This document shows, one piece after another, positions 3-38,842 of a stretch of DNA of 38,899 bases. Under the pieces are notes generated by a model that made no database searches, was not told where the DNA came from, and saw only the letters and a list, made by a program, of their open reading frames with translations. The position numbers and the translations under genes are program-made. The DNA is taken from assembly GCA_051891975.1 (NCBI GenBank), contig JBJFFT010000047.1:1-38899 (forward strand). Reading direction: 5' to 3'. Origin of the DNA: Candidatus Spyradenecus sp. (lineage in GTDB: Bacteria > Verrucomicrobiota > Kiritimatiellia > RFP12 > DVOR01). Every line of letters starts with the position of its first letter. Position 1 is the first letter of the stretch.

Positions 3-929
3 ATCTAGGAGGTTGACCGGGGCCGAGCAGCCGGGCAGGAGAAGCGCGAGGTCGCAGTATTCGCGGTAGAGGACGGAGGCGACGTCGGCGGTGTCAGTGC
101 GCGCGAGGGTGAGGGTGAGCACTTCGCCGGGGCGGAGAAGCTCGGCGCCCAGGCTGAGGGTGAAGCCGTTATCGCGCAGGTCGCCGGGGGTGACGGTGCG
201 GCTCTCTCCGGCGCAGGTGGCCGTCACGCTCAGGCAGAGGGAGTCCTTGGCCCCCAGGAAGGGCGCGCCCGAAAGACGAAAGGCCGCCGCGCCCGAGCGC
301 AGGCTCGCCGGCAAGGCAAAGGTGAAGGTCTGCGGTTCGCCGCTCTTGAGCTCGGTGTAGTGGTTCTCCCGCGCTTCGCGGAAGGCGCGCAAGAGCCGCC
401 AACGCGGCACCCCCGCCGGGAGGCGACCCTCGGCCTGAAAGCGCGCGAAGTCGGCCTCGGCCAGCTCGGCCAACGGCGGCAGCTCAGGGGCCAGCCGCTC
501 CCGGCCCGGGGGCAAGGGGCGCCAGAGCAAGAGCGCACCCAGCGCCGCCACCGCCACGGCAAAGGGCAGGAGGTTGGCCGCCAAGCGCGCGAGCCAGAGT
601 TGCACCGGGCGCAGGGGTTTGACCAAAGGGAGCGCGAGCAGCTCGCGGTCGCGGTCGAGCGCATAGGCGTTCGCACCGGTCCAGAGCGCGGCAATGAGCA
701 GGAGCGCCCAGGCCAGGCCCAGCGCGTAGGGCGTGCGCAGCAGCTCCGGATCCTCCACCCCCGGCAACGCAATCAAGAGCAACCCCAGCGCGGCCAAGAG
801 CGCCCACAGGAAGGGCCCGCGCACCGCCCGTCGCCAAACGAGCGCCGCTTCGGCGGCAAAAGTCGACAGTCGACAGTCGACAGTCAACAGGGCGCTTACG
901 CGACGGATAGGCTGAGGGTTCGCTTCCAT
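3..929 (-). CDS. ABC-2-type permease-like membrane protein, 3' end runs off the window (not in ORF track)
   Basis: Read manually: ATG at 929 after GAGG, 10 nt after the ATPase stop; MEANPQPIRRVSALLTVDCRLSTFAAEAALVWRRAVRGPFLWALL...ALDRDRELLALPLVKPLRPVQLWLARL..., open to the edge; DR..L.L..VKPL motif typical of ABC-2 permeases. Confidence 0.75.
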   Translation of the reverse strand, partial: MEANPQPIRRVSALLTVDCRLSTFAAEAALVWRRAVRGPFLWALLAALGLLLIALPGVEDPELLRTPYALGLAWALLLIAALWTGANAYALDRDRELLALPLVKPLRPVQLWLARLAANLLPFAVAVAALGALLLWRPLPPGRERLAPELPPLAELAEADFARFQAEGRLPAGVPRWRLLRAFREARENHYTELKSGEPQTFTFALPASLRSGAAAFRLSGAPFLGAKDSLCLSVTATCAGESRTVTPGDLRDNGFTLSLGAELLRPGEVLTLTLARTDTADVASVLYREYCDLALLLPGCSAPVNLLD

Positions 930-985
930 CTTGCCTCTGCTATCGGCGTTCGGTCTGCTGCGAGCGCAGCGAGCAACTGTCGACT
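861..985. repeat. Heptamer-array element straddling a gene junction
   Basis: AGTCGAC x3 + AGTCAAC (861-888), reverse core at 891-906, CTGCTGCGAGCGCAGCGAGC at 955-974, CTGTCGACT at 977-985. Confidence 0.85.
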
Positions 986-1761
986 TCTTCTCCCACCTTC
1001 AGCCACTCCGGGCACTCGGGGGGCTTGACGGTGCAGCCGAGGGTTCGCAGGAAGACGCTTTCGAGGGAGTCTTGAAGCTCGGCAACGGGGCCTTGGAGGA
1101 GGGGGGTGCCGCGGTCGAGGATGAGAATGCGGTCGCAGGTGTCGCGGACATCCGGGAGGAGGTGCGAGGTGGTGAGAATGGCCAGGCCGCGCGCCTTGAG
1201 GGCCAGGAGGAGTTCCTTGACTTCGCGCGTGCCGATGGGGTCGAGGCCGGAGGTGGGCTCGTCGAGGATCAGCACGCGCGGGGCGTTGATGAGGGCCTGA
1301 GCAAGGCCAACGCGGCGCGTCATTCCCTTGGAGAAGGCGCCGACGCGACGGTCGCGGGCGTGCGTCAGGCCGGTGAGCTCGAGGAGGTCGTCAATCCGCG
1401 CGCGGAGGGCCTTGCCGGAGAGACCGCTCAGGCGGCCGTAGTAGGCGAGCGTCTCGCGCGGGGTGAGGAAGGGGTGCAGGTGGGTAATCTCGGGCAGGTA
1501 GCCCAGGAGCGCGTGCGCGGCGGGCGACTCGGGGGCGTGACCAAAGAGCGCGACCGAGCCGCTGTCGGGCCGCAGGAGCCCCAGGAGGATGCGGATGGCG
1601 GTGCTTTTACCCGAGCCGTTGGGGCCGAGCAGACCGAGCGCTTCGCCGGGAGCCAGGGTGAAGGAGAGGCCTTTGAGGGCTTCGACCGTGGGCCGGCCCC
1701 AGAAGTCACGGAAGGTTTTGCGCAGATCCTGCGCGCAGAGAGCGGGAATGGGCGGGGTCAT
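940..1761 (-). CDS. ABC transporter ATP-binding protein
   Basis: Walker A GPNGSGKST, signature FSKGM, Walker B LILDEPTSGLDP, H-loop SH. Confidence 0.95.
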   Translation of the reverse strand: MTPPIPALCAQDLRKTFRDFWGRPTVEALKGLSFTLAPGEALGLLGPNGSGKSTAIRILLGLLRPDSGSVALFGHAPESPAAHALLGYLPEITHLHPFLTPRETLAYYGRLSGLSGKALRARIDDLLELTGLTHARDRRVGAFSKGMTRRVGLAQALINAPRVLILDEPTSGLDPIGTREVKELLLALKARGLAILTTSHLLPDVRDTCDRILILDRGTPLLQGPVAELQDSLESVFLRTLGCTVKPPECPEWLKVGEEVDSCSLRSQQTERR

Positions 1762-2738
1762 ACAGAACTTCGCTCAAGCCTGCGCGCGCCGAGGTGGAGG
1801 CAGAGGAGCGCCAGGCAGAGGGTTTGAGGGAGGAGGAGCAGGAGCGTGGTCGGGGCCACATAGCCGGCGGCTGCGGAGGAGAGCGCGTCGAAGGGCAGAT
1901 AGGCCGAGCCGCCGAGGAAGACCAGGTCCAGCCCCACGGCCAGCACCGTCAGCGCCGCAGTCAGCCCCGGCGGCAACGCAGTGGCCAGCGCCAACGCCAC
2001 GGCCGCCGCTTGCGCCAGGAGCGCGAAGAGGGCCGGCAGGGCCGAGAGGGTCCCCCAATGGAGCGGCCCATCGAAAGAACGCAGGAGCACGAAGGCCCAC
2101 AGCGCGCACGGCATCAGCAGATTGGCCGAGAGGGCAAAGCGCGCGGAGCGGACGCGGTTGGCCGCCGCCGCGAGCGCCACGGCCCCCACGAGCGCGCCGA
2201 GGGCAGCGAGGAGCGTGGGGATGTCGGCGAAGCGGCCGGTGGTGTGATAGCGCGGGGCGGCGGCCTCGGCAATCAGGAGCGCGGGCGCCTGCGTGGCCAG
2301 GAAGAGCCCCAGGCCGAGCACGCTCCCCCCAAGCTGTCCGGCCAGCCAGGTGCCGCGCTTGAGCGGCTTGACGAAGGCGATTGCGCAGGTGCCCTCGGTC
2401 AGCGCCCGATGGAGCCGCCCGGCCCCGCCCAAGGCGAGCAGCAAGCCAAAGAGAACGGTCCCGGCCAGGCCGCAATCGCGCGGCAGGCGGCCATCCTCGG
2501 AGAAGCGTTGGAACTGGAGCATCGGCAGGACGAGCGTCCCGGCCGCGCTCGCCAAGGTGAGCAACATCGTGATGGTCGCAGCGGCAACTTCGCGACCTGC
2601 GAAGGAGGAAACAGTCACGATAGACGATAGACGATAGGCGATAATGCTGTCGCCGGAGGTGGAAAGCCCGGCCAATTGGCGCAAGCTGACCCGTCGCGGA
2701 ACGCGCTTCCCGCCTATCGCCAATCGCCTATCGTTCAT
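1758..2738 (-). CDS. ABC-2-type permease; first ~40 aa derived from a repeat element
   Basis: Multiple hydrophobic segments, AFVKPLKRGTWLAG motif; ATG overlaps upstream stop (ATGA) and its stop overlaps the ATPase start. Confidence 0.75.
   Translation of the reverse strand: MNDRRLAIGGKRVPRRVSLRQLAGLSTSGDSIIAYRLSSIVTVSSFAGREVAAATITMLLTLASAAGTLVLPMLQFQRFSEDGRLPRDCGLAGTVLFGLLLALGGAGRLHRALTEGTCAIAFVKPLKRGTWLAGQLGGSVLGLGLFLATQAPALLIAEAAAPRYHTTGRFADIPTLLAALGALVGAVALAAAANRVRSARFALSANLLMPCALWAFVLLRSFDGPLHWGTLSALPALFALLAQAAAVALALATALPPGLTAALTVLAVGLDLVFLGGSAYLPFDALSSAAAGYVAPTTLLLLLPQTLCLALLCLHLGARRLERSSV
2617..2738. repeat. Heptamer-bounded element inside the permease 5' end
   Basis: ACGATAG x3 + 31-bp core + CCGTCGCGGAACGCGC (2691-2706) + inverted CGCCTAT CGCCAAT CGCCTAT. 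Confidence 0.9.
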
Positions 2739-3754
2739 ACCTTTGCCGTGCGTTCCGTTGAAGAGCGGAGGAGTTCGTCGTCGAGGACGGCGTTGAGGAC
2801 ATCCTCCTGGGAGACGATGCCGGTGGGGGCGCCGGCGGCGTTGAGGACGATGAGGACCTTGGTCCGCCGCAAGCGCATGTAGGGCAGGAGGTTATCGGCG
2901 GGGGTGTCGGCGCGGACGAAGACCGGGGCGCGGCGCAGGTCGAAGGGCACGGGGGCCTTGGAGCGGGCGCGCAGGAGGTCGAAGAGGTGCAGGACGCCGA
3001 GGCAGCGCTCGCCGTCGTCGGAGAAGAGCGGCAGGATGCGGTGGTGGCTCTGGCGGAAGACGCGCAGGACGGTGGAGAGGTTGTCGCTTTCGTAGACGCG
3101 GACCATCCGCGCGAGCGGGGTCATCACCTGGCTAGCGCGGCGGAGCTGGAGGTCGAGCACGCGGCTGACCATTCCGCGCTCGAAGGCGGAGATTTCGCCG
3201 TGCGCCTCGGAGTCGCGCATCAGGAAGGCGAGGTTTTCGCGAGAGAGGAAGGGGGAGCGTTTGCGGCCGCGTTCGCGGGGGGTGACCAGGCGCGTGAGCA
3301 GGATGCAGAGCGAGGCGAGCGGGAAGAGGAGCGTCCGGAAGAAGAGGAAGATGGGCAGGAGCGGGCGGCAGCGCTCGATGGGCCGGGCCGTAAACCAGAG
3401 CTTGGGCAGGAACTCGCCGATGATGAGCAGCGCTATCGCCACGGCCACCGTGGCAAGGGTCTGGGCCAGGGAGGGATCGGCCCCTAATCGCGCGGCGGCC
3501 GCCAGCGCCAAGACCGTGGTCAGCGTCGAGAGCGCCACATTACAGATGTTGTTGCCCACCAGGGTGGTGGCAAGCATGCGGTGACTATCGCGCAGGGCAG
3601 TGGCGAGGGCGCGGGCGCGCTTGTCGCCGTGGCGGATGAGGTGGACCAGCCGGTGGCGGTTGAGGGAGACCATCCCACTCTCGTAGCCCGAGAAGAACCA
3701 GCTGCCCAGGAAGAAGAGGGCCATTAGGGCGAGGTTGATGATGAGCGCGCTCAC
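2735..3754 (-). CDS. CNNM/DUF21 + CBS-pair membrane protein (hemolysin/CorB family)
   Basis: FFSGYESG, TTLVGNN, GEFLPK, QVMTP, TGIVSQEDVL motifs; GTG start at 3754 overlaps the upstream TGA (GTGA). Confidence 0.9.
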   Translation of the reverse strand: MSALIINLALMALFFLGSWFFSGYESGMVSLNRHRLVHLIRHGDKRARALATALRDSHRMLATTLVGNNICNVALSTLTTVLALAAAARLGADPSLAQTLATVAVAIALLIIGEFLPKLWFTARPIERCRPLLPIFLFFRTLLFPLASLCILLTRLVTPRERGRKRSPFLSRENLAFLMRDSEAHGEISAFERGMVSRVLDLQLRRASQVMTPLARMVRVYESDNLSTVLRVFRQSHHRILPLFSDDGERCLGVLHLFDLLRARSKAPVPFDLRRAPVFVRADTPADNLLPYMRLRRTKVLIVLNAAGAPTGIVSQEDVLNAVLDDELLRSSTERTAKV

Positions 3755-5088: not shown

Positions 5089-5095
5089 AGCCCGC

Positions 5096-5104
5096 AGTAT
5101 AGCA
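5096..5104 (-). promoter_or_regulatory. Extended -10 promoter (TG-C-TATACT), probably leaderless transcript
   Basis: TATACT lies 7 nt before ATG 5088; no SD. Confidence 0.6.
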
Positions 5105-5148
5105 AAACCCTGCTCCGCGCGTAGCCTCATCGGCGCGGGCGGCTTTAG

Positions 5149-5223
5149 CCGTCTCGCGCGCTAACCGCTAAGAGCTAGCCACTAACAGCTCAGGTCAACC
5201 CGTCGCGGTAGCGCCGGGGTTGA
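5149..5223 (+). repeat. Heptamer array with core motif
   Basis: GCTAACC GCTAAGA GCTAGCC ACTAACA (5160-5187); CCGTCGCGG inside a GTCAACCC/GGGTTGAC hairpin. Confidence 0.8.
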
Positions 5224-5283
5224 CTTTTCCGGCGTAAGCCTATATTATTGCGACATTTTGATGGCTACACAAGGATACTTGCG

Positions 5284-6048
5284 ATGGACTCGATTACGGT
5301 TGGCATTATCGGCTGCGGCTTTATCGGCAGCGCTCTGAAGATCTGGCTCGAACGAAACAACCCCGCCGTCAAGGTGCTGGTCAGCGACCCGCCTAAGGGA
5401 ATGAACGACGACCTCTCCGGCGCCGACGTCTACTTCCTCCAAATCCACGTCCCCACCGAAGATGACGGCACGCAGGACCTCACCCTGATGAAGCAGCTCA
5501 TCTGCGCCCTGCCCGCCGGCAAACCCGTCTTCGTCCGCACCACCATCCTCCCGGGCACCTCCGCGCGTCTCACCCAGGAAACCGGCCACCCCGTCTACTT
5601 TATGCCCGAGTTCCTCACCGAGCGCACCTACATCGAGGACTTCCAGAACCAGCCCATGGTCTTCACCGGCGAGATTGACCTCCTCTCCAAGATCTTCAAG
5701 GGCAAGAAGTTCTGCCGCATGACCTCCCTTGAAGCCGAGATCACCAAGTACGCCCACAACGTCTTCGGCGCCCTCAAGGTCACCTACTTTAACGCCGTGG
5801 CCGACTACTGCCGCCGCATGGGCGCCGACTTCGCCAACGTCCACACCGGCTGCCTCCTCTCGGGCTACATCAACGAAACCCACACCCAAGTCCCCGGCCC
5901 AGACGGCAAGTTCGGCTACGGCGGCAAGTGCTTCCCCAAGGATGTCAACGCCTTCGCGGACCTTACCAAGGATCTCCCCCTCGGCAAGCTCCTCGCCCCC
6001 CTCCACGAACTCAACGTCCTCTTCCGCGGCATCGAAGAGCACATCTAA
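5284..6048 (+). CDS. Short UDP-glucose/GDP-mannose dehydrogenase family protein
   Basis: GIIGCGFIG Rossmann motif, PEFL, AEITKYAHN, GYGGKCFPKD catalytic Cys; AAGGA before ATG 5284; no C-terminal UDP-binding domain. Confidence 0.88.
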   Translation: MDSITVGIIGCGFIGSALKIWLERNNPAVKVLVSDPPKGMNDDLSGADVYFLQIHVPTEDDGTQDLTLMKQLICALPAGKPVFVRTTILPGTSARLTQETGHPVYFMPEFLTERTYIEDFQNQPMVFTGEIDLLSKIFKGKKFCRMTSLEAEITKYAHNVFGALKVTYFNAVADYCRRMGADFANVHTGCLLSGYINETHTQVPGPDGKFGYGGKCFPKDVNAFADLTKDLPLGKLLAPLHELNVLFRGIEEHI

Positions 6049-6056
6049 CCCCTTTC

Positions 6057-6210: not shown

Positions 6211-6333
6211 GACCTAGGCCCTACCTTGGGTCGACCTAGGCCCTACCTCGGGTCGACCTAGGCCCTACCTCGGGTCGACCTAGGCCCTACCTCGAGTTGA
6301 CCTAGGGCCTATCGCGCGCGCGTACGCGCGTAG
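6211..6333 (-). repeat. Composite element copy A: 22-bp tandem array + RY-alternating head (inverted)
   Basis: About 4.5 copies of GACCTAGGCCCTACCTCGGGTC followed by CCTATCGCGCGCGCGTACGCGCG. Confidence 0.92.
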
Positions 6334-6382: not shown

Positions 6383-6470
6383 GCTCATAACTAACCGCTA
6401 ACGGCTATCTGCTGCGAGCGAAGCGAGCTCCCACCAGCCGATCCGTCGCGGTACGCGCGCTGTCGACTGT
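6383..6470 (+). repeat. Heptamer array + CTGCTGCGAGCGAAGCGAGC + core
   Basis: ACTAACC GCTAACG GCTATCT; CCGTCGCGGTACGCGC at 6443-6458 followed by CTGTCGACTGT. Confidence 0.8.
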
Positions 6471-6498
6471 GCTACACTGTGGAGGAAAGGAGCGAGCG

Positions 6499-8184: not shown

Positions 8185-9258
8185 ATGAACAAGCGCATTG
8201 CAATTGCCTGCGGCGGGACCGGCGGGCACATCCATCCGGCGCTGGCCGTGGCCGATCGGCTGCGGGCCGAGGGCGCCGAACTCTCCCTCATCCTCTCGGG
8301 CACGCGCCAGGCCGAGGCCCCCACCGCGGCCGCCTGGCAAGGGCCGCTCCTCAAGTCCGGCGCGCGGCCGATTCGCGACCCGCGTAATCTGCTGGCCGTG
8401 CTGCGTTGTCTGCGCTTCCTGCGGCGCGAGCGGCCGGCAGTGCTCTTCGCGACGGGGGGCTACACCTCCTTCGCGCCCGTGGTCGCCGCGCGGATGCTCA
8501 AGATCCCGGTGGTGCTGCACGAGGCGAATAGTCTGCCCGGCAAGGCGGTCCGCTGGCTCTCGCGCCATCTGCGCGTGGAGGCGGTGGCCACGAGTTTCCC
8601 GGAGAGCGCGGCCAAGCTGCCGTGGGCGCGGTGCGTCCAGACCGGGCTGCCGCTGCGCGCGCGCGTCTTGGAGACCTTGGCGCGGGCGCAGGCGGTGGAG
8701 AAGGCGGAGGGGCAGCTGACGGTGTTGGTGACGGGCGGGAGCCAGGGCGCGCGGGGGATGAACCGCCTGGTGGCGCCCATCCTCGCCTCGCTGGCACAGA
8801 GCGACCCCAAGGTGCGCATTGTCCACCAGTGTGGCGCGGCCGACTGCGAGGAGATGGCGCGCGTCTATGCCGCCACGCCCGGCCAGGTGACCATCGCGCC
8901 CTTTCTGGAGGATATGGGCACGGCCTACGGTCAGGCCGACTTCGTTATCGCCCGCGCCGGGGCCGCCACCTGCTTCGAGATTGCCGCCTGCGCCGTGCCC
9001 GCTATCTTCATCCCCTTGCCGACCGCCGCCGAGCACCACCAGCACCTCAACGCCCAGGCCCTTGTTCGCTCCGGTGGAGCCTTGCTCTTCGACCAAGTGA
9101 CCGGCGCGCCCCACCAACTCGCCGAGGCCATCCGCCAGCTCTACGCCGACCCTCTCCTGCGCAAGATGATGCACCAGGCCCTCGCCGACCTCCCTCGCCC
9201 CGATGCCGCCGGCGCGTGCGCCGCGCTGATATGGAGAACAGTGAACGGTGAGCAGTGA
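8185..9258 (+). CDS. murG: UDP-GlcNAc:lipid I N-acetylglucosaminyltransferase
   Basis: GGTGGHIHPA, GGYTS, HEANSLPG, GGSQGA, RAGA, HQHLNA motifs. Confidence 0.95.
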   Translation: MNKRIAIACGGTGGHIHPALAVADRLRAEGAELSLILSGTRQAEAPTAAAWQGPLLKSGARPIRDPRNLLAVLRCLRFLRRERPAVLFATGGYTSFAPVVAARMLKIPVVLHEANSLPGKAVRWLSRHLRVEAVATSFPESAAKLPWARCVQTGLPLRARVLETLARAQAVEKAEGQLTVLVTGGSQGARGMNRLVAPILASLAQSDPKVRIVHQCGAADCEEMARVYAATPGQVTIAPFLEDMGTAYGQADFVIARAGAATCFEIAACAVPAIFIPLPTAAEHHQHLNAQALVRSGGALLFDQVTGAPHQLAEAIRQLYADPLLRKMMHQALADLPRPDAAGACAALIWRTVNGEQ

Positions 9259-9268
9259 ACGGTGAGCG
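9234..9268 (-). repeat. Heptamer array overlapping the murG stop
   Basis: GAGAACA GTGAACG GTGAGCA GTGAACG GTGAGCG. Confidence 0.85.
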
Positions 9269-9340
9269 CGGGGGCTGCTCGCCCCCGCACCCCTCGGGAG
9301 CGCAGTGCGCTCCACCCCGGCCGAAGCGCCCGTTGGGCAC
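9268..9340 (-). repeat. REP-like double-hairpin element copy 1
   Basis: Reverse complement matches 14173-14224 and 36257-36351. Confidence 0.85.
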
Positions 9341-9371
9341 TTCGGCTTTTTTTCCAGCCCTGCAAGGCTGC

Positions 9372-9418
9372 CCGTCGCGGAACGCGCGCTAACAGCTAAC
9401 CGCTAGCCGCTAACAGCT
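9372..9418 (+). repeat. Core + heptamer array
   Basis: CCGTCGCGGAACGCGC then GCTAACA GCTAACC GCTAGCC GCTAACA. Confidence 0.9.
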
Positions 9419-9570: not shown

Positions 9571-11205
<1,635 letters not shown>

Positions 11206-11233
11206 TTGCGTAAATCCTTTCTGTGTTTAAGGC

Positions 11234-11527
11234 TTAGCCGAGGATGCCAAGCAGGTCCTCGGAGCGGACAATCTGGTAGGTGACATCGTTGAGCTTGACT
11301 TCGGTGCCGCCGTACTTGGGCAGCAGGACGGTGTCGCCGGGCTTCACATCGAAGGGGACTTCCTTGCCGTCCTTGTCGCGCTTAGTGCCGACGGCGATGA
11401 CGGTGCCTTCCATCGGCTTTTCCTTGGCGGTGTCGGGGATGATGATCCCGCCGCGGGTCACTTCCTTCTCTTCCTTGGGCTGGACCAACACGCGGTCGCC
11501 GAGGGGACGAATTGCAGGGGTAGACAT
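11234..11527 (-). CDS. groS: Co-chaperonin GroES
   Basis: [31 protein letters not shown]. Confidence 0.99.
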
Positions 11528-11560
11528 AGTTGCTTATCCTTTCTAAATGGGTGAATGGGG

Positions 11561-11591
11561 GCGGCGAGCGGGGGAGGCCTCCGCTCGCCGC
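11561..11591 (-). other. Intercistronic GC hairpin between dnaK and groES
   Basis: GCGGCGAGCGG / CCGCTCGCCGC perfect 11-bp stem, no U-tract. Confidence 0.6.
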
Positions 11592-11597
11592 GGCAGG

Positions 11598-13502
<1,905 letters not shown>

Positions 13503-13550
13503 TGCTCTATTCCTTTCTTGCGGCTGCTGCCGCGTCAGTTCGTCTCCCTT

Positions 13551-13567
13551 TGCAACCCCCGTGCCAA
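13551..13567 (-). promoter_or_regulatory. Sigma54 (-24/-12) promoter of dnaK-groES-groEL
   Basis: Minus strand TTGGCACGGGGGTTGCA: exact GG-N10-GC fit to YTGGCACGrnnnTTGCW, ~50 nt upstream of the dnaK ATG. Confidence 0.8.
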
Positions 13568-13600
13568 ACCGAACTTCCCCCCCGTCCTTCGCCCCCAACC

Positions 13601-13660
13601 GTGCCACACTGTGCCACATCGTGCCAAACCGTGCCACGCCCCTGCCACAACCGTGCCACC
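13601..13660 (-). repeat. 10-11-bp-period array of TGGCA(C) boxes
   Basis: GTGCCA on + strand at 13601, 13611, 13621, 13631, 13653 and CTGCCA at 13642. Confidence 0.85.
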
Positions 13661-13681
13661 TCCGTGGCAGGGTTGTTTTTC

Positions 13682-13818
13682 CGATAGGCGATAGACGATA
13701 GACGAGAAAGCTGTCGCCGGAGGTGGAAAGCCCGGCCAATGGGCTGCCGGTTCCTCCGTCGCGGCACGCGCCCTGTCCACTGTTGACTGGCCACTGTCGA
13801 CTGGCTTGCGCAGCGACC
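13682..13818 (+). repeat. Heptamer-array element with 31-bp core shared with 2617-2738
   Basis: (CGATAGR)x3 + GCTGTCGCCGGAGGTGGAAAGCCCGGCCAAT + CCGTCGCGGCACGCGC + CTGTCCA CTGTTGA CTGGCCA CTGTCGA. Confidence 0.9.
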
Positions 13819-13819
13819 C

Positions 13820-14094
13820 GCCCCGGGTTGACCTCGCATCCGCCTCGGGTTCGTCTTGGACCCGGGGCGAGGGGAATTATTAAGTCCCGGACTTATCGGA
13901 ATTAAGTGGTGGACTTATCGCCGATAAGTGGTGGACTTATTTCCGATAAGTGGTGGACTTAATAGTTCGACCCGGGGCGGGTGCGTTTTGGGCCCGGGGC
14001 GCTTTACATTTTTGTCCGCCCCGGGTTCGCCTCGAGGTAGGCCCGGGTTGACCCTCGACCCGGCCCGAGTTCGCTTTTGGCCCGGCCCAGGTGA
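13820..14094. repeat. 11-bp-period lattice containing four 22-bp-spaced TAAGT-N5-ACTTA palindromes
   Basis: TAAGT at 13881, 13903, 13925, 13947; GCCCCGGGTT at 13820 and 14018 (198 = 18x11 apart). Confidence 0.85.
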
Positions 14095-17457: not shown

Positions 17458-17680
17458 AGAAACCAATAACCTTCTGGTGACCGCACTGGGGCGTTTTGGT
17501 CGGTGGGCCTTCCCCGCGGCAAAGCAGAAGGCATCCGGCAGGACCATCCTGAAGGGGGCTGTCCCCTCCCAAAACAGCCTATACAATACCTCATTCCCGG
17601 GGGGGAATGCAAGCGCGATGGATTGCGCTGCCATTGAAACGCCCGAGGAAGGGTGGAATGGAGGGGGCGATAATGTGGCG

Positions 17681-17822
17681 AGCGGACAGCCGACAGCGGA
17701 CAGCCGACAGTGCTGGCGCAGAGAATGAAAAGCCCGTCTGAGCCGTGGGAGGTGCTCAGGCGGGCTTTTGGGGTGTTCGTCGCGCGAGCGGAGCTGTCGG
17801 CTGTCCGCTGTCCGCTGTCGGC
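17681..17822. repeat. Inverted heptamer arrays enclosing a terminator
   Basis: (AGCSGAC)x4 at 17681-17708 and the reverse complement (GCTGTCS)x4 at 17793-17820. Confidence 0.9.
17728..17769. terminator. Bidirectional intrinsic terminator downstream of the nanA-AGE-gtrA operon
   Basis: AAAAGCCCGTCTGAGC...GCTCAGGCGGGCTTTT. Confidence 0.85.
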
Positions 17823-17829
17823 CGATGTT

Positions 17830-23948: not shown

Positions 23949-24077
23949 GCGCACGCGCACGCGCCTACGCGCGCGATAGGCCCTAGGTCACCTCGAGGTA
24001 GGCCCTAGCTCACCTCGACCTAGGCCCTAGGTCGACCCGAGGTAGGCCCTAGGTCGACCCGAGGTAGGGCCTACCTC
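23949..24077 (+). repeat. Composite element copy B
   Basis: CACGCGCACGCGCCTACGCGCGCGATAGG + ~4.5 copies of CCCTAGGTCGACCCGAGGTAGG-like 22-mers. Confidence 0.92.
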
Positions 24078-31798: not shown

Positions 31799-31900
31799 AC
31801 GCGCTCACGCGCACGCGCCTACGCGCGCGATAGGCCCTAGCTCACCTCGAGGTAGGGCCTAGGTCGAGGCGAGGTAGGCCCTAGGTCGAGTCGACCTAGG
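31799..31900 (+). repeat. Composite element copy C (left flank of the LRR cassette)
   Basis: GCGCTCACGCGCACGCGCCTACGCGCGCGATAGGCCCTAG + ~3 degenerate 22-mers. Confidence 0.92.
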
Positions 31901-32163
31901 CGCTGGCTCTTTGTACCTCCGGCGTGCAAAACAAACCCGGCCGTGGCACCGCGTTGACGAGCATCGCGCCATTGGAACACATAAAAGCACTTTACAGGCA
32001 CACCGAAAGATGGTAGGCTTTCAAATGAACATAGGGAGTTCCCTATCATCAGCCTCGGTCAAGCAACTGGCGTTGCACTTGGCCCTTGCTGGCAAAAAGG
32101 AGGCTTGGGTCTTAGCCATCCGGATTGTGACAAACTGAAAAGACCGGCAAGGAAGAGAAGCAG

Positions 32164-35100: not shown

Positions 35101-35181
35101 TCGCGCAATCTGCTGACGATCACCCGAACGGATGAGAGGGTGTTTCTCGTTTCTCGCGAGAAGCTGAAAACCATCCAATAA
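32164..35181 (+). CDS. Secreted BspA-like (LRR_5/TpLRR) surface protein with 187-aa tandem repeats
   Basis: Signal peptide MKELMVALVAALSMTCFA; many xLxxIGxxAFxxCxxL repeats; ~100-aa non-repeat C-terminal domain. Confidence 0.93.
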   Translation: MKELMVALVAALSMTCFAATTTYSYVDGAKTWTYTLSASNATLTGVSGTLDAELVIPSTVGEEHYSVVSIAKNSFQSLTIESLTIADSVQSLGGGAFANCSALRTVTLGSGLTTIGDGSSSTSDNNPDNYAASGAFGKCSALEEVVFNDKLVTIGHHAFSECIALKELTLPDSLQTIGNNAFYHNQSLASVTLGTGLTTIGRYAFYNCPELADVAFRPSSTPILTIDAYAFAGAVKLTSLEFSESLKQLGYGAFSGCTALEAVEFPNSLTSITGGGASNTTGAFANCTALKKVTLGSGLTTIGDGSSNTSDNNLDNYAASGAFGNCRALEEIVFNDKLVTIGHHAFSECIALKELTLPDSLQTIGNNAFYHNQALASVSLGTGLATIGGYAFYNCPELASVAFRPSDTPMLTIYSYAFAGAAKLTSLEFSGSLKQINYGAFSRCTALAAVEFPNSLTSITGGGASNTTGAFAKCTALKKVTLGSGLTTIGDGSSNTSDNNPDNYAASGAFGDCSALEEIVFNTQLVTIGRHAFSECIALKELALPDSLQTIGNNAFYHNQALASVSLGTGLATIGGYAFYNCPELASVAFRPSDTPMLTIYSYAFAGAAKLTSLEFSGSLKQINYGAFSGCTALETVEFPNSLTTITGGGSSNTAGAFANCTALKKVTLGSGLATIGNGSSNTSNSASDSYASSGAFGNCSALEEIVFNARLVTIGHHAFSECVALKALAFPDTLQTLGVNCFYDNKRLTRITFGANLEKIGKYTFAKCASLASVAFSTSTLPTLTIDSYAFWDCVMLQSLMFNNAVPTIVNGAFAGCTLLRKITIPSVLSTIEDNSFATLTELREIVFLGLPPENLSSLGLATDVKIRYSKDYEEDWQTALAAGGFTNAEAFTGGDLGSVVLDGSRYDLSSTPGDRAIASIVISADTRIDIADLIDNKVYDSVLRIVNTADQSVVITLPEGYTYETFEGADPLTLPANSRNLLTITRTDERVFLVSREKLKTIQ
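32446..34500 (+). repeat. 561-bp intragenic tandem repeat, ~3.6 units
   Basis: Equivalent positions at 32507, 33068, 33629, 34190; near-identical DNA. Confidence 0.93.
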
Positions 35182-35195
35182 GGCGAGGTGCAACT

Positions 35196-35825
35196 ATGTC
35201 AGCCTCACTGAAAATAGGCGTGATACTGGCGCTATTTGCCAGTATTCCCGCATGGGCGATGCCGGTGGGCGTGCGCCTGGCGATGCAAGGGCGCATCGCC
35301 GCGCAATTGCCCGCCGAAGACGACCCCTTCCCTGTGCTTGACGAAGCAACCCCGGAGCAGATTGCTGCGGTCTTGGCGGACGCGGTCGACAGCGAACTCG
35401 CGGCAAACATCGTCAATGCGGCGGAGTACGCAGCATTCCGCACCTGGGCGCAGTCCGCAGGCGCGGCCGCAGTCAAAGCGAGCACCACCTCGTGGCTCTC
35501 CTACGCGCTGGGCGTGCCCACCCTGGTGCCGGCCCCGCAGGAGGGCGATCTGACGATTGAAGAAGTGCAGCTCGTAGGCACACAATGCGAGGTCGCCTTC
35601 TCGCTGAAGAACGTGAACATCAGCCCGACGGCGCTCGAAGCGCGGCTCAAGACCGTCTTCGGCGTGGAGGGCGCATCGGTGCTCGAAGCGGCGCAATTCA
35701 GCCCGGACAACCTCGAGGTCGCCTTGTCGCCCACGGAAGATGGGCGCGTGAAAGCAAGTGTCGAACCGAAGGCCTCCGGCAGCAAGACCTTTTTCATCCG
35801 CATTCGGTTGAAAGGGGCGCACTAA
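35196..35825 (+). CDS. Secreted hypothetical protein co-transcribed with the LRR protein
   Basis: GAGGTG RBS, 14 nt after the LRR stop; signal peptide ending PAWA; C-terminal strand TFFIRIRLK. Confidence 0.8.
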   Translation: MSASLKIGVILALFASIPAWAMPVGVRLAMQGRIAAQLPAEDDPFPVLDEATPEQIAAVLADAVDSELAANIVNAAEYAAFRTWAQSAGAAAVKASTTSWLSYALGVPTLVPAPQEGDLTIEEVQLVGTQCEVAFSLKNVNISPTALEARLKTVFGVEGASVLEAAQFSPDNLEVALSPTEDGRVKASVEPKASGSKTFFIRIRLKGAH

Positions 35826-35849
35826 GCTATCATCGCAAAGACACCTAGC

Positions 35850-35897
35850 AAGCCCAGGGCCGCCTTCCTGAAAGAAATCGGGAGCGGCCCTGGGCTT
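35850..35897 (+). terminator. Hairpin/terminator ending the LRR cassette
   Basis: AAGCCCAGGGCCGC...GCGGCCCTGGGCTT perfect 14-bp stem, then ATT. Confidence 0.7.
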
Positions 35898-35960
35898 ATT
35901 GGTTCATCGATGGGCGAGAAGTAGGTGCACCCGGGCTCAATGCCTAGTGTATAGGTAACA

Positions 35961-36085
35961 CGCGCGCTCACGCGCACGCGTCTACGCGCGCGATAGGCCC
36001 TAGGTCACCGCGAGGTAGGGCCTAGGTCGCCTCGAGGTAGGCCCTAGGTCACCTCGAGGTAGGCGCTACCTCTGAGCGAGGTAGG
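35961..36085 (+). repeat. Composite element copy D (right flank of the LRR cassette, same orientation as C)
   Basis: CGCGCGCTCACGCGCACGCGTCTACGCGCGCGATAGGCCCTAGG + ~4 22-mers. Confidence 0.92.
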
Positions 36086-36256
36086 CGAGGCCCCAAAAGG
36101 GCATGGGGGCAGAGGGCAGGCCAGGGTGGTGCGGGCGTTTTTTGCCCCAGTGCGGCCTGGCGGAGCAGGCCACCGCGCCACGCTTACCCTCCCCTGGCAA
36201 AACGCTTCATAGCGCCCTCCGCCCGCCCCTTCCCCCTGGTGTGCCTTTCAGCCGGC

Positions 36257-36398
36257 GTGCCCGGAGGGCGCGCCGGCCGGGGTGGAGCACCCCGTGCTCC
36301 CGAGGGACGTGGGGGCGAGTAAGTCCGTAGGAGCTATGTCATCGCCCCCACAGCTAGCCGCTAACCGCTAACGGCTAACTGCTACGAGCGCAGCGACC
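36257..36398 (+). repeat. REP-like double-hairpin copy 3 followed by a GCTAACN heptamer array
   Basis: GGAGCAC-CCC-GTGCTCC; GTGGGGGCGA-23nt-TCGCCCCCAC; GCTAGCC GCTAACC GCTAACG GCTAACT GCTACGA. Confidence 0.85.
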
Positions 36399-36472
36399 TC
36401 TCGCTTGCGTTGCGGGGCGGATGGGGTTTATAATAGGGAACAGTTTCCCTTTTTATCAGAGGAGTATTGGTT

Positions 36473-37483
36473 ATGGAATTGCTGAAGCAGATTTGCGCGA
36501 AGGCCAAGGGCTCTGGGCGCACCGTTGTTTTGCCTGAGGGCCAGGACCCGCGCGTGATTAAGGCGGCGAACCTGGCTGTCCAGGAGAATGTGGCGAAGAT
36601 CATTGTGCTGGGCACGCCTGAGGAGATTGCCTTCTCGGAGAACGCGGCCGGGATGAAGTTGGCCGCCGAGGTGCAGGTGATTGACTACACTCAGGGCGCG
36701 CTGCTCGAGGAGTTCGCCACGGCCTTCTACGAGAAGCGCAAGGCCAAGGGGATGACCCCGGAGGCGGCGCGCCAGTCGCTGCTCGATAAGCGCATCTACT
36801 TTGGTGCGATGATGCTGGCGGTGGGCAAGGCCGATGGCCTGGTGGCCGGGTCGATTGCCTCGACGGGCGATATGCTGCGCGCGGCCTTCCAGTGCGTGGG
36901 CACCGCGCCGGGGATCAAGCTCGCCTCCTCCACCTTCCTGATGGGCCTGCGCGAGCCGACGGCCGCGGGCGACGAAGTGCTCTGCTTTGCCGACTGCGCG
37001 GTCAACCCCTGCCCGACCGCCGAGCAGATGGTCGACATCGCCCTGGCCACGGCGCGCACCTTCCGCGCGCTGGTGGGCAAGCAGCCCAAGGTCGCCTTCC
37101 TCTCCTTCTCCTCCAAGGGCTCGGCCAAGCACGAGCTCGTCGACAAGGTGGCCGAGGCCGCGCGCCTGACGAAGGCCAAGTTCGAGGAGCTCGGGCTGGA
37201 CGCGGTGGTCGATGGCGAAATCCAGGCCGACGCGGCGATCGTCCCGGCCGTGGCCCTCCAGAAGAACCCCGGCGGCGCCATCAAGGGCGACGCGAACGTC
37301 CTCATCTTCCCCGACCTCCAGGCCGGCAACATCTGCTACAAGCTGGTCCAGCGCCTGGGCGGCGCGACCGCCCTCGGCCCCGTGGTCCAGGGCGTGGCCA
37401 AGCCGATTAACGACCTCTCCCGCGGCTGCTCGGCCGAAGACATCTTCGGCAACATCTGCATCACCGTCGGGCAGACGCTGTAA
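36473..37483 (+). CDS. pta: Phosphate acetyltransferase
   Basis: VVLPEG, ADCAVNP, LSFSSKGSA, DGEIQADAAI, FPDLQAGNICYK, NDLSRGCS; AGGAG RBS and upstream TATAAT. Confidence 0.97.
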   Translation: MELLKQICAKAKGSGRTVVLPEGQDPRVIKAANLAVQENVAKIIVLGTPEEIAFSENAAGMKLAAEVQVIDYTQGALLEEFATAFYEKRKAKGMTPEAARQSLLDKRIYFGAMMLAVGKADGLVAGSIASTGDMLRAAFQCVGTAPGIKLASSTFLMGLREPTAAGDEVLCFADCAVNPCPTAEQMVDIALATARTFRALVGKQPKVAFLSFSSKGSAKHELVDKVAEAARLTKAKFEELGLDAVVDGEIQADAAIVPAVALQKNPGGAIKGDANVLIFPDLQAGNICYKLVQRLGGATALGPVVQGVAKPINDLSRGCSAEDIFGNICITVGQTL

Positions 37484-37542
37484 GGAACGATTGGCGTCTA
37501 TCGTCTATCCACGAGCGGCGCTTGCGCCGCGAGGAGTCCCCT

Positions 37543-38682
37543 ATGCCCTCCGAAGCCGATTGCCTCATTGCCGCCAACCGCGTCCCGCAAGTGGGCGCGG
37601 CGAAGGTGGCATCGCTTCGGCGGGCCTTTGGTTCGCTCCAAGCCGCCGCGCAGGCCGAGCCCGAGGAGGTGGCGCTGCGCTGCAAGGACCTGGGGCCGAA
37701 GTTGGCCCGGCAGGTGGTCGAGGCAATGCGCTCGGACTTCGCGGCCGAGGAACGCGAGCGGGCCGAAAGCTCGGGCATCGCCCTCCTCACCGATGAGGAC
37801 CCCGCCTGGCCGGCGGCCTTCCGCACCCTCGCTTCGCCCCCGCTCTGCCTCTACTGCGTGGGCAACCTCGCGCTCCTGGGGCAGACCCAGGTGGCGATGA
37901 TTGGCACGCGCCGCGCCTCCATCTATGGCACTGAGCAGGCCAAACGCTTCGCGCTGGGGCTGGCCGGGGCGGGAGTCGTCGTCACCAGCGGCCTGGCCGA
38001 GGGCATCGACAGCGCCTCGCACGAGGGCGCGCTGGAAGCTCGGGCCCTGGCCCCCGACCGCGCCGGGTGCACCATCGCCGTCATCGGCGCCGCGCTCGAT
38101 TGCCTCTACCCCGCTAGCCGCAAACCCCTCGCGCGGCAAATCGTCCGCGAAGGGGGCCTGGTCATCAGCGAATACGCCCTGGGGCGCAATGCCGACCGGC
38201 AGACCTTCCCCGCGCGCAACCGCCTGGTCGCCGCCCTCGCCCGCGCCGTCCTCGTGGTCGAGACCCCGCAGAAGGGCGGCACGATGATTACCGTCGAGAT
38301 GGCCGAGGCGCTGGGCCGGCCGCTCTTCGCCGTGCCCGGGCGGCTCGATTGGCCCTCCTTCATTGGCAACCACACCCTCATCCGCGACGGCCGCGCCCGC
38401 CTGGCCACCCATCCCGAGGAGCTCCTCGAGCGCCTCGGCGCCCTGCCCCTGGGCCCCGCCACCGCCCCCACCGCTCCCGCAACGCCCGACCCCTTTGCCG
38501 GGCTCGACCCCACCGAGCGCGCCATCCTCGCGGCCATCCCCCCCGAGGGCCTCTCGATGGACGAACTCTGCGCGCGCACCGGCCTCCCCATCGCCGAGGC
38601 CACCTGCGCCGTCATCGCCCTACAAATGCGCCGCAAGCTCCGCCCCCTCCCCGGCGGGCGCATTGCTCGCGCACGAGTCTAG
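37543..38682 (+). CDS. dprA: DNA-processing protein DprA
   Basis: IGTRRAS, TSGLAEGIDSASH, ISEY, FPARNRLVA, GGTMIT, AVPG, C-terminal winged helix; GAGGAG RBS. Confidence 0.95.
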   Translation: MPSEADCLIAANRVPQVGAAKVASLRRAFGSLQAAAQAEPEEVALRCKDLGPKLARQVVEAMRSDFAAEERERAESSGIALLTDEDPAWPAAFRTLASPPLCLYCVGNLALLGQTQVAMIGTRRASIYGTEQAKRFALGLAGAGVVVTSGLAEGIDSASHEGALEARALAPDRAGCTIAVIGAALDCLYPASRKPLARQIVREGGLVISEYALGRNADRQTFPARNRLVAALARAVLVVETPQKGGTMITVEMAEALGRPLFAVPGRLDWPSFIGNHTLIRDGRARLATHPEELLERLGALPLGPATAPTAPATPDPFAGLDPTERAILAAIPPEGLSMDELCARTGLPIAEATCAVIALQMRRKLRPLPGGRIARARV

Positions 38683-38700
38683 GGCTCGCCGCGCTCGCGG

Positions 38701-38842
38701 AGTCGGCAGTCGACAGTCGACAGTCGACAGTGCGCGTTCCGCGACGGATTCTCTTAGGGGCACTTGGCCTTCCCTTTTTCACTTCTACCATTGCGGGCCA
38801 CCAGGCCCGCTCCTGCCGACTGTCGACTGTTCTCTGTCGACT
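38701..38842. repeat. Inverted heptamer arrays with core, downstream of dprA
   Basis: AGTCGGC AGTCGAC x3, reverse core GCGCGTTCCGCGACGG (38732-38747), then CTGCCGA CTGTCGA CTGTTCT CTGTCGA. Confidence 0.9.

Follow-up and report, generated by a model that had tools for sequence, protein, structure and literature searches.

Intergenic heptamer arrays of a gut Lentisphaerota-type genome as probable arms of an element family encoding a four-helix-bundle protein

S23p-type intervening sequences (IVSs) of 23S rRNA occur in Leptospira as well as in Coxiella. In the Coxiella 23S IVS, an S23p ORF lies within a 28-bp stem of terminal inverted repeats; the 5′ arm consists of three to four tandem GACAGAT heptamers, whose number differs between strains, and RNase III excises the IVS (PMC4990558). 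According to that paper, no role is known for the 23S rRNA IVS protein family. Dispersed heptamer repeats have been noted since about 1990, and PMC4692102, PMC4679880 and bioRxiv 2022.06.06.494920 offer no accepted origin or function for them. Published heptamer simple sequence repeats (SSRs) amount to about 180 arrays per genome, with a mode of four units, 89–93% intergenic location and 70–75 inverted pairs, and these papers discuss G-quadruplexes or translational control and name no flanking gene or leader (PMC4692102; PMC4679880). CGTC-tagged REPs have stems of 8–9 bp beginning with A/T pairs and loops of 4–5 nt, and no dedicated transposase is known for them (PMC3733652).

The window analyzed here (38,899 nt) is one entire contig of a 2.14-Mb gut Lentisphaerota-type metagenome-assembled genome (MAG), hereafter G000. 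The original prediction had described dispersed heptamer arrays in it, and these are real: TRF called period 7 at most window loci, and 231 arrays in six unit classes were found genome-wide. The arrays near 6390 and 6460 are visible in the sequence but fall below the TRF score, and the one at 5160 was called as period 14. The CCGTCGCG cores lie where they had been placed, including degenerate copies at 5149 and ~17777 and an array-less copy at 5200, and the second motif, GCGAGCG-N-AGCGAGC, occurs at 960-974, 6414-6428 and 36384-36398. Seven more exact CCGTCGCG 8-mers in the window all lie within coding sequence and lack an array. The window elements are as follows.

861-890, minus strand: heptamer arm of the CTGTCGA class, about 4 units (TRF 4.3 copies), pointing left (TRF and sequence).
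891-906, minus strand: leader1, that is CCGTCGCG plus a GTAA-loop hairpin (sequence).
907-959, no strand assigned: composite centre (sequence; orthologues known).
960-974, plus strand: second motif GCGAGCGCAGCGAGC, a G-N-A-loop mini-hairpin, leader of the right arm (sequence; G014 orthologue).
977-986, plus strand: right arm cut down to 1 unit, with 4 units after the second motif in G014 (orthologue comparison).
2618-2644 (TRF 2617-2643), minus strand: left arm, CTATCGY class (TRF and sequence).
2645-2690, plus strand: left leader of V2 type, GCTGTCGCC..GTGGAAAGCCCGGCC, sharing homology with the leader that lies 5′ of the four-helix-bundle gene of contig C49.
2691-2706, plus strand: leader1 hairpin, CCGTCGCG-GAA-CGCG (sequence).
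2707-2733 (TRF 2711-2733), plus strand: right arm, CTATCGY class (TRF and sequence).
5149-5191 (TRF 5160-5190, as period 14), plus strand: degenerate leader1 and decayed CTAACNG array.
5200-5215, plus strand: leader1 hairpin without an array (sequence).
6390-6428, plus strand: CTAACNG array of 3 units, then the second motif at 6414-6428 (sequence).
6443-6480, plus strand: leader1 (GTA loop) and a short CTGTCGA-type array touching the ribosome-binding site of the next gene.
9235-9267 (TRF 9236-9265), minus strand: arm of the CYGTTCA class, the plus strand reading GTGAACG (TRF and sequence).
9372-9418 (TRF array 9388-9418), plus strand: leader1 (GAA loop) and CTAACNG arm, about 4.4 units.
13682-13707 (TRF 13682-13705), minus strand: left arm, CTATCGY class (TRF and sequence).
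13708-13755, plus strand: left leader of V2 type (alignment to the C49 5′ leader).
13756-13819, plus strand: leader1 (GCA loop), CTGTCSA arm (13773-13804; TRF 13773-13803) and trailing GCGCAGCGAC motif.
17681-17710, minus strand: left arm, CTGTCSG class, 4 units (TRF and sequence).
17711-17776, plus strand: left leader of V1 type, CTGGCGC..AAAAGCCCGTCTGAGCCGTGG, with a terminator-like hairpin in this copy.
17777-17822, plus strand: degenerate leader1 (TTCGTCGCG..) and CTGTCSG arm (TRF 17793-17819), the arms pairing into one long stem.
36321-36344, plus strand: short insert-like sequence GTCCG..GGAGCTATGTCA, elsewhere found inserted in arms (orthologue set O).
36352-36398 (TRF 36353-36384), plus strand: CTAACNG array of about 4.6 units and second motif (36384-36398), no leader1.
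37495-37509, plus strand: two CGTCTAT units (TRF 2.1 copies), weak, possibly a remnant or chance.
38701-38731, minus strand: left arm, CTGTCGA class (TRF and sequence).
38732-38747, minus strand: leader1 (GAA loop; sequence).
38748-38812, minus strand: centre carrying the left-leader-like GTGAAAAAGGGAAGGCCAA (sequence, alignment).
38813-38843 (TRF to 38842), plus strand: right arm, CTGTCGA class (TRF and sequence).

These elements sit between protein-coding genes and not within 23S rRNA helix 25 or 45. An Rfam search of the window returned one tRNA only and no family for the heptamer elements, and no enzyme gene was found in the window, as originally stated. A pig-gut metatranscriptome contig covers positions 606-985 (four runs, contigs only, given without ends or strand).

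Genome-wide in G000, 92 of the 270 exact CCGTCGCG sites lead into a small G..A-loop hairpin and 3–10 heptamers in one fixed orientation, at least three similar heptamers after CCGTCGCG being required and one of the 92 (contig C61) being an apparent false positive. C-CGTC-GCG stands before the hairpin in the 92 modules; the leader1 stem is GC-only and 4 bp long in 41/65 modules (range 3–7), with GNA loops in 42/65 and GNNA loops in 13/65. The modules are distinct except for one identical pair, the median nearest neighbour being 46/55 identical in a donor search for swapped cassettes. The exact core lies directly 5′ of the array on the CT strand in 70 of 206 oriented arrays, compared with 7 for the other three configurations combined; the proposed polarity thus holds, but 94 of the 206 lack any recognised leader. 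Although 70% of the genome is gene core, 184/206 arrays lie elsewhere. Forty-two of the 206 arrays are at most 20 nt from a stop codon, only 14 have a likely start codon within 30 nt, and 53 solo arrays are in sense orientation versus 28 that are not, the orientation and start-codon statistics depending on our own crude ORF caller and all genomes being draft MAGs. The notion that arrays always follow a hairpin was dropped, as perfect stems of at least 6 bp are only modestly enriched: they precede 15% of arrays and follow 23%, and occur at 10% of random intergenic sites.

The predicted unit CT-R-W-Y-S-N came near and was refined to C-T-R-W-C-N-N with a variable position 6. Positions 1, 2, and 5 are 87–98% conserved (697 units), and adjacent units are identical in only 26% of cases; within-array differences are densest at position 6 (42%, versus at most 6% at positions 1, 3, 5, and 7). 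The earlier view that plain slippage is insufficient agrees with this pattern. CTG/CTA could correspond to template triplets of DnaG primase; non-CT units in other phyla count against that idea. Nor is CCGTCGCG a universal core: in the collection scan, 23 of the 80 matches listed came from other phyla, and the other-phylum genomes checked carry it once each, as expected by chance in a 596-Gb scan. In a Gemmatimonadaceae MAG, it is merely part of a flip-flopping hairpin. Such stray matches were useful only for exposing the shared architecture.

The placement of arrays 3′ of a conserved core is likewise real, but this core is one end of a composite with a second inverted arm. The larger unit consists of a reverse-complement array, a 50- to 75-nt centre, the CCGTCGCG hairpin and an array; arrays flank the centre on both sides and point outward, whereas the core stands on one side only and a leader of another type accompanies the opposite arm. 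Each arm has about 4–5 heptamers and is an inverted copy of the other, so that a single strand pairs as a stem of ~28–35 bp around the centre or gene. "Empty" inverted arm pairs with centres of 4–19 nt exist as well, and the sister species G005 and other phyla carry the same inverted heptamer arms without the CCGTCGCG 8-mer. RNAalifold on 20 V1 centres detected no conserved structure besides the leader1 hairpin; a sigma-54-like reading of CTGGCGC-N5-GTGC in V1 was discarded, as it matches some copies only and not V2.

The genes between such arms were of the four-helix-bundle (23S-IVP-like) kind that had been named for checking. Contig C49 of G000 carries between class-B arms a 118-aa gene of the TIGR02436/PF05635 four-helix-bundle family (the 23S-rRNA-IVS protein family), with a 5′ leader GCTGGCGC..GTGGAAAGCCCGGCC and a 3′ leader CCGTCGCG-GAA-CGCG. 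Its protein scored 117.7 bits against TIGR02436 (cut-off 24) and 36.7 bits against the Avd model, under the cut-off of 80. The nearest solved relative is Xanthomonas XCC0516 (PDB 2gsc, 5 chains, E = 2.9e-20), which Lin et al. 2006 describe as a pentamer in their title (listed in PMC10053308). Window centres align to the C49 5′ leader and window right sides to its 3′ leader, no window copy contains a PF05635/TIGR02436 ORF, and the only two PF05635 genes of G000 (contigs C49 and C27) are both in full-length copies. Judged by sequence, the window copies appear to be ORF-less miniatures or halves of the full-length element. RNA folds showed paired arms for the full-length copy (z = −5.8) as well as for the window copy 17675-17825 (z = −8.5). 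Arm-to-arm covariation, however, gave 25.8 matches for own partners versus 23.8 ± 4.9 for shuffled partners, with none above shuffled, and V2 left arms (CTATCG) occur with right arms of any class. These results indicate that the miniatures do not keep a perfect stem.

Inverted flanks were scored at PF05635 loci by comparing the upstream flank with the reverse-complemented downstream flank and requiring at least 18/21 matches. Sixteen of 24 genome loci from five phyla passed, compared with 0/40 shifted windows and 5/1282 G000 genes, and so did 48/67 metagenome loci (controls, 0/104); 8/24 and 19/67, respectively, did not. Period 7 was present in 47/49 flank arrays with a median arm of 5.0 units, each locus having its own unit, and three loci of the genus had direct rather than inverted arms by eye. 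One Rhodospirillales MAG gave 82 array matches and no PF05635 match, PF05635 genes occur in 12 congeners without bulk arrays, and bulk arrays are absent from 22–23 of the 28 congeners.

Between sister species, the centres keep the same loci, and over 26 orthologue pairs the centres had an identity of 0.967, the left arms 0.87 and the right cassettes 0.86, the arms diverging about four times faster. Whole units are gained or lost between orthologous arms and the variable position is shuffled; the arm class is replaced exactly 3′ of CCGTCGCG in orthologue sets C, J, and R, and one centre is inverted. Arms can also disappear along with the gene, and at window site 2617, all that G014 has is two units meeting in a bare junction. 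The proposed comparison of filled and empty sites was provided by G014, which has a gene-bearing element where contig C209 of G000 keeps about two heptamers; no clear target-site duplication was seen at this one pair.

Taken together, these data make it probable that the arrays, the CCGTCGCG hairpin and the 50- to 75-nt centres are one element family, the full form of which encodes a PF05635 gene between inverted arms. A full-length member would comprise an inverted heptamer arm, 5′ leader, 118-aa gene, CGTC-tagged hairpin leader and heptamer arm. As to the spread of the elements and the role of their arms, we infer that the stem may be the functional part, because the analogous Coxiella IVS stem is cut by RNase III. 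Recombination between arms would keep them matched, slipped-strand and palindrome-bypass events would remodel them, and the miniatures could survive between genes as selfish or neutral DNA; the pentameric protein may recognise some five heptamers. Against the one-family explanation stand the ratio of 2 PF05635 genes to 231 arrays in six classes, the 94 leaderless arrays, miniature arms no better matched than shuffled partners, the Rhodospirillales MAG, the loci with direct or non-inverted flanks, and the PF05635 genes in congeners without bulk arrays.

Alternatively, the repeats could be independent REP/BIME-like sequences mobilised by RAYT-like HUH tyrosine transposases, with four-helix-bundle genes inserting at the hairpin apex as IVSs do in rRNA helices. 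Leader1 has the CGTC tag plus palindrome layout of CGTC REPs (PMC3733652), G000 holds at least five RAYT-like paralogues with intact HUH and YIxxNP motifs, and the empty arm pairs and the bare G014 junction at 2617 also favour this course. We nevertheless consider it unlikely: the RAYT-like genes, a suggested companion of the arrays, are present but do not follow them (13/28 congeners, including 8/23 without bulk arrays), and by TRF the 25 RAYT-like loci are flanked by 22-nt-period palindromic repeats (7) rather than a heptamer array (2). Furthermore, the miniatures have as their left leader the one found 5′ of the gene itself, and the Coxiella IVS brings its own heptamers into rRNA (PMC4990558). 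It is much less probable still that a reverse transcriptase or other templated polymerase adds heptamers stepwise at the core, in line with the core-primed, telomerase-like synthesis first proposed. Fixed polarity, class replacement exactly 3′ of the core and the sub-threshold relation of PF05635 to Avd, the accessory protein of diversity-generating retroelements (DGRs), would suit it, whereas RVT_1 was found in 0/5 array-rich genomes and 1/23 other congeners, arms stand on both sides with a different leader opposite, and G005 and other phyla have core-less arms.

A host-useful binding lattice, whose heptamers (about five, in RNA or DNA) are occupied by the pentameric four-helix-bundle protein or a different factor to control mRNA ends, stability or termination, would account for the conserved positions 1, 2, and 5 beside a free position 6, the tight arm length of 4–5 units, the pentameric relative, the arrays close to stop codons and the sense-strand excess of solo arrays. 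The Xanthomonas GGGAATC arrays similarly have a four-unit mode and lie close to the upstream ORF (PMC4692102). As a full explanation, it has a low probability in our view, given that most congeners lack bulk arrays, that arms are lost, swapped and truncated at about four times centre divergence, and that six unit classes face two protein genes in G000. A 7-nt binding lattice as such is possible, with the pentameric protein as candidate ligand. Ordinary slippage microsatellites with an incidental motif association are contradicted by the controls and have a negligible probability. Among long SSRs, heptamers are reported as over-represented in many bacteria (Mrazek 2007 via PMC4679880 and PMC4692102), and whole units come and go between orthologues; however, core orientation is 70 versus 7, heterogeneity inside arrays is position-specific, and inverted pairing surrounds PF05635 genes with 0/144 controls passing. 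Overall, the interpretation given in the original prediction was partly supported.

The one-family explanation joins the heptamer-repeat and IVS-protein puzzles by a checkable rule, namely, that PF05635 genes lie between inverted arms of about five heptamers, and the link to an IVS-type cassette may explain heptamer repeats in many bacterial genomes. More tentatively, and with considerable doubt on our part, STRR/LSSR heptamer arrays across Bacteria could largely be arms or decayed remains of one cross-phylum S23p/Avd-like pentamer cassette, whose protein would read about five of the 7-nt units in the cassette's arms; 23S rRNA IVSs would then be only the first-noticed niche, and the fixed period with free sequence would reflect protein-ring geometry, not polymerase slippage. 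Across the five sister genomes, sites form a natural gradation from full-length elements through miniatures and halves to empty sites. Heptamer arms also break assemblies and give hypervariable intergenic markers.

Among known systems, the Coxiella IVS similarly has a PF05635 ORF between inverted repeats with a ~28-bp stem, and its GACAGAT, when reverse-complemented, corresponds to the CTGTCAT class of the present genome (PMC4990558). The long-stem terminal inverted repeats of 23S IVSs were found here in RNA folds and at the 16/24 and 48/67 loci. Unlike 23S IVSs, the present elements lie between protein-coding genes, are mostly ORF-less, have hundreds of arms divided among six unit classes and bear additional CGTC-tagged hairpin leaders, and RNase III processing would apply by analogy only. 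The arrays were also compared with the intergenic heptamer SSRs of Xanthomonas (GGGAATC), Nostoc (GGGGAYT) and Beggiatoaceae (TAACTGA) and with cyanobacterial STRRs. G000 arrays are tandem 7-nt, intergenic, dispersed and heterogeneous, as SSRs and STRRs are; unlike Beggiatoaceae TAACTGA, just 14/206 have a likely start codon at a distance of 30 nt or less. Miniature inverted-repeat elements (MITEs) share the terminal inverted repeats, and the parent here encodes a four-helix-bundle protein and no known transposase; we know of no transposase-like activity in the PF05635 four-helix-bundle family. DGR Avd has a homologous pentameric four-helix-bundle fold, but no RT, template repeat or variable repeat lies nearby. 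REPIN-RAYT systems are likewise abundant, vertically stable intergenic hairpin repeats in genomes with RAYT-like genes, whereas the RAYT-like genes here are neither co-distributed with the arrays nor flanked by them (heptamers at 2/25 loci). CGTC REPs and BIME/NIME mosaics share the unpaired CGTC head, small palindrome, mosaic layout between genes and head-to-head pairs (PMC3733652), but the stems here are 3–7 bp long and made of GC pairs only, their loops are of the G-N-A or G-N-N-A type, and heptamers follow the hairpin. Like published heptamer SSRs, the arrays have heterogeneous unit positions, lie near the 3′ end of the upstream ORF and vary between sister species (PMC4692102; PMC4679880). 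IVS elements and heptamer SSRs are already known, and the heptamer-armed composite is a variant of these.

The heptamer arrays listed in the original prediction were all present in the window, the short ones near 6390 and 6460 being seen by eye only, alongside secA, dnaK/groEL, a gene for a BspA-type LRR protein and others. Across the source draft genome (G000; 2.14 Mb, 215 contigs, 65.5% G+C, 92% complete, with the window as its entire contig C47), TRF reported 337 period-7 rows, and a stricter array finder retained 231 arrays, 206 of them orientable. Although gene cores make up 70% of the genome, 184 of these 206 arrays lay outside them. Six unit classes were found (CTAACNG, CTGTCNG, CTGTCGA-like, CTATCGY, CTGTCAT-like and CYGTTCA), and in 697 units C1 was conserved in 98%, T2 in 90%, R3 in 94% and C5 in 87%, with position 6 nearly free. 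Neighbouring units within arrays were identical in 26% of cases and differed at position 6 in 42%; arms were 3-6 units long, with a mode of 4-5. The core, CCGTCGCG, was followed by 3-10 similar heptamers at 92 of 270 exact sites, one of them apparently spurious. The polarity proposed from the window held genome-wide: on the CT strand, the core immediately preceded the array on its 5' side 70 times, and all other configurations together gave 7. The core formed a small hairpin whose stem co-varied with its loop (CGCG-GNA-CGCG, CGC-GNNA-GCG or CGCGG-CNNG-CCGCG; GNA in 42 and GNNA in 13 of 65 loops), and was preceded by a semi-conserved CCnnnnRGYYnnY.

Neighbouring arrays were chiefly divergent (-,+; 32 of 50 pairs), and the larger unit was a composite: a reverse-complement array, a centre, the CCGTCGCG hairpin and an array, with both arms pointing outward. 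Centres were of two types, V1 (~72 nt; CTGGCGCTCGAKGTG...RGCCCGTCTGAGCCGTGG, ~28 locus-specific nt, then CCGTCGCG) and V2 (~52 nt; GCTGKCGCCGGAGGTGGAAAGCCCGGCC..., then CCGTCGCG); the core also occurred as head-to-head pairs. Among the 206 arrays, 73 had the core as leader, 35 a V1/V2 left leader, 4 a second motif (GCGAGCG-N-AGCGAGC, found either at the head of an arm or after it) and 94 none recognisable. Modules within the genome were distinct, apart from one identical pair, and the arms of one composite were not found to match each other better than shuffled partners.

Composite elements in the window
861: composite with truncated right arm
2617: complete composite
5149: half composite
6390/6443: half composite
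9372: half composite
13682: complete composite
17681: complete composite
36353: half composite
38701: complete composite

Several other features were seen in the window.

Other features in the window
9265-9350: ~85-nt repeat (GGGGCTGCTCGCCCCCGC..), with an arm on one side and a terminator-like hairpin on the other; the four sister genomes all contain it, in many copies of 88-94% identity
11547-13694 (+): long ORF with a Pfam NAD-GH (PF10712) match, antisense to a dnaK-like ORF at 11598-13739 (-)
13596-13659: tandem array of six 10-11-nt units (CAACCGTGCCA); the left arm at 13682 follows closely, and the dnaK ORF overlaps the array with its over-extended 5' end
13819-14093: ~270-nt multi-copy block, a distinct dispersed repeat adjoining the heptamer element, with 22-nt AT-rich repeats at 13879-13961; sister genomes contain dozens of copies at 75-90% identity
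36321-36344: GTCCG..GGAGCTATGTCA, 24-29 nt, found beside or inside heptamer arms

The ORF at 11547-13694 is very probably no gene but a shadow ORF; PF10712 matches antisense dnaK. The GTCCG..GGAGCTATGTCA sequence, seen also at locus L166 of G014 and as a 29-nt arm insertion in one orthologue (set O), is possibly a mobile or hairpin unit of very small size. A further mosaic repeat, in which 13-nt G-N-A-loop hairpins come after CACCTCWCG with a period of ~21-22 nt, occurred on G000 contigs C17, C72 and C107 and at sister loci of window site 9234.

The V1 pattern and bulk arrays occurred in an identical set of 5 of 28 congeners, whose coding DNA was 91-97% identical; the V1 pattern was found in none of 16 genomes from other families of the same order.

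V1 copies and array pattern matches in the five array-rich genomes
G000: 22 V1 copies, 111 array matches
G003: 39 V1 copies, 211 array matches
G009: 46 V1 copies, 294 array matches
G014: 23 V1 copies, 139 array matches
G018: 10 V1 copies, 118 array matches

A sixth genome, G005, had 10 array matches, without CCGTCGCG, which flanked a 14-nt centre or preceded ribosome-binding sites. When the collection was scanned for the core with an array, 57 of the 80 matches listed belonged to four MAGs, with the record titles Candidatus Spyradenecus sp., Lentisphaeraceae bacterium (two records) and Kiritimatiellae bacterium. Most V1 centres were orthologous across the five species, and in 26 orthologous pairs centres shared an identity of 0.967, left arms one of 0.87 and the part lying 3' of CCGTCGCG one of 0.86. 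Orthologous arrays had gained or lost entire units (sets B, G, L and M), as at the right arm of window site 861 (1 unit in G000, 4 in G014), and were reshuffled at position 6. In sets C, J and R, the loop plus array was swapped for another class, starting exactly after CCGTCGCG. In set A, the centre was inverted once between its arms (G009). Window site 2617 had another element in G009, and in G014 it consisted of only a junction of two units. The stem-bounded unit can be inverted or lost as a block.

The decisive observation came from the suggested search for four-helix-bundle genes of the kind known from 23S rRNA intervening sequences (IVS), since PF05635 genes were found between heptamer arms. 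Such genes occurred in 18 of the 28 congeners, and short tandem-repeat arms enclosed the gene in all 14 genus loci inspected by eye. On contig C49 of G000 the order was reverse-complement arm, GCTGGCGCGTTGCGTGGAAAGCCCGGCCCAACC..AGAAGCCT, an ORF of ATG, 118 codons and TAA, ..TTAGCCACGC, CCGTCGCGGAACGCGG and arm; the encoded protein matched TIGR02436 with 117.7 bits. A gene-bearing unit on contig C48 of G014 had the core at both sides and CTAACNG arms, and at G000 contig C209 its empty allele retained about two units. Even G004 and G006, array-free by the search pattern, showed C[CT]GTTCT arms with a CCGTCGCG- or CCATCGCG-type hairpin. In alignments, the V1/V2 centres of the window matched the 5' leader of the gene and the right sides its 3' leader, so the window copies are ORF-less miniatures of the gene-bearing element. 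Of note, the PF05635 gene at 10924-11238 of G005 contig C59 has an in-frame TGA at a conserved Trp codon and represents either a pseudogene or a site of read-through.

In other phyla, 8-mer matches to CCGTCGCG were chance occurrences. The same outward inverted arms were met there.

Array matches with outward inverted arms in other phyla
Gemmatimonadaceae MAG: 94, with ~90-nt palindromic centres that flip
Gemmataceae MAG: 127
Rhodospirillales MAG: 82
Anaerolineae MAG: 35

PF05635 genes were present in 4 of the 5 other-phyla genomes examined, a Planctomycetaceae MAG among them; none was found in the Rhodospirillales MAG despite its 82 array matches. By eye, tandem-repeat arms were seen at 10 of 11 such loci; in most cases they were inverted, and the unit differed from locus to locus. 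We then compared the upstream flank with the reverse complement of the downstream flank, scoring the best 21-nt window at a threshold of at least 18 matches. This inverted-flank test was passed by 16 of 24 genome loci (three of the 24 mutually orthologous), the control rates being 0 of 40 for shifted windows and 5 of 1282 for G000 genes. Both flanks were available at 67 of 80 unselected metagenome loci; of these 67, 48 passed (controls, 0 of 104). Period 7 was seen in 47 of 49 arrays detected in the flanks, a strict period-7 array standing on at least one side of 35 loci and on both sides of 12; these arms had a median of 5.0 units and lay ~40 nt from the gene.

The original prediction had suggested directional addition of units by a telomerase-like reverse transcriptase or other trans-acting enzyme, or selection for a 7-bp-period binding lattice, and had named reverse-transcriptase and HUH/RAYT genes among those to look for. 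Reverse-transcriptase addition was not supported: a search of the five array-rich genomes found no RVT_1. HUH genes did turn up, but they were not co-distributed with the arrays: the RAYT-like family occurred in 13 of 28 congeners, 8 of them without bulk arrays. At least five paralogues were found in G000; their scores did not reach the threshold of the NCBIfam REP_Tyr_transpos model (E = 1e-7 to 1e-14), but they had intact HUH and YIxxNP motifs and a common C-terminal domain of ~130 aa. Among 25 RAYT-like loci analysed by TRF, 7 were flanked by 22-nt-period palindromic repeats and only 2 by a heptamer array. The RAYT-like genes are treated here as a separate repeat system; as the 22-nt repeats at 7 of 25 loci were species-specific, the 22-nt-period arrays of the window are probably REP partners of these genes.

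RAYT-like loci and 22-nt-period arrays
G000 contigs C40, C158, C151, C91 and C211 (loci L170-L175, L195): RAYT-like HUH family of at least five members, 315-380 aa, with the C-terminal pattern GN..LL..P...CSRR...SP.EK...GG.L.VL.PEGF..WHP; patchy across the genus, with stop codons in some copies
Window 6211-6311, 23977-24073, 31824-31901 and 35987-36086: 22-nt-period arrays built from 11-mers (GACCTAGGCCCTACCTCGRGGT type) that alternate with their inverted copies, GCGCGTR 7-8-mers often following; G000 contig breaks fall in such arrays
G000 contig C189, ~3290-3560: small ORF with three Cys-rich repeats (C..CGSSCYGSGCYHSPTGKH), at the site of a RAYT-like gene in G003

The observation behind the original prediction was real, whereas its proposed mechanism mostly did not hold. 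On folding, the arms paired into a single long stem enclosing the gene or centre. By analogy with the Coxiella IVS, this stem would be the working part of a PF05635 element. Recombination may hold the inverted arms alike, arms could change through slippage and palindrome bypass, and the miniatures might be kept as selfish or neutral DNA. Several points speak against the element reading: 94 arrays lack a recognisable leader, the arms of miniatures do not match, one array-rich MAG has no PF05635 gene, and inverted arms were not detectable at 28-33% of loci. The nearest solved relative of the C49 protein is the pentameric Xanthomonas XCC0516. Because a pentamer parallels the ~5 units per arm, the boldest step suggests that the four-helix-bundle protein is a putative reader of its own arms.

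Neither a general rule joining PF05635 genes to heptamer arms nor ORF-less dispersed derivatives were found in the literature searched on the IVP/S23p gene family, mostly open-access main texts, and a broader reading is open to testing. Several related repeats have been described. CGTC-tagged REPs have been reported (PMC3733652), and Beggiatoaceae carry TAACTGA repeats (PMC4679880). Heptamer SSRs of Xanthomonas and Nostoc have a four-unit mode, form inverted pairs and lie close to upstream ORFs (PMC4692102), and the Coxiella IVS has a 28-bp stem cut by RNase III, with 3-4 GACAGAT units as its 5' arm (PMC4990558).
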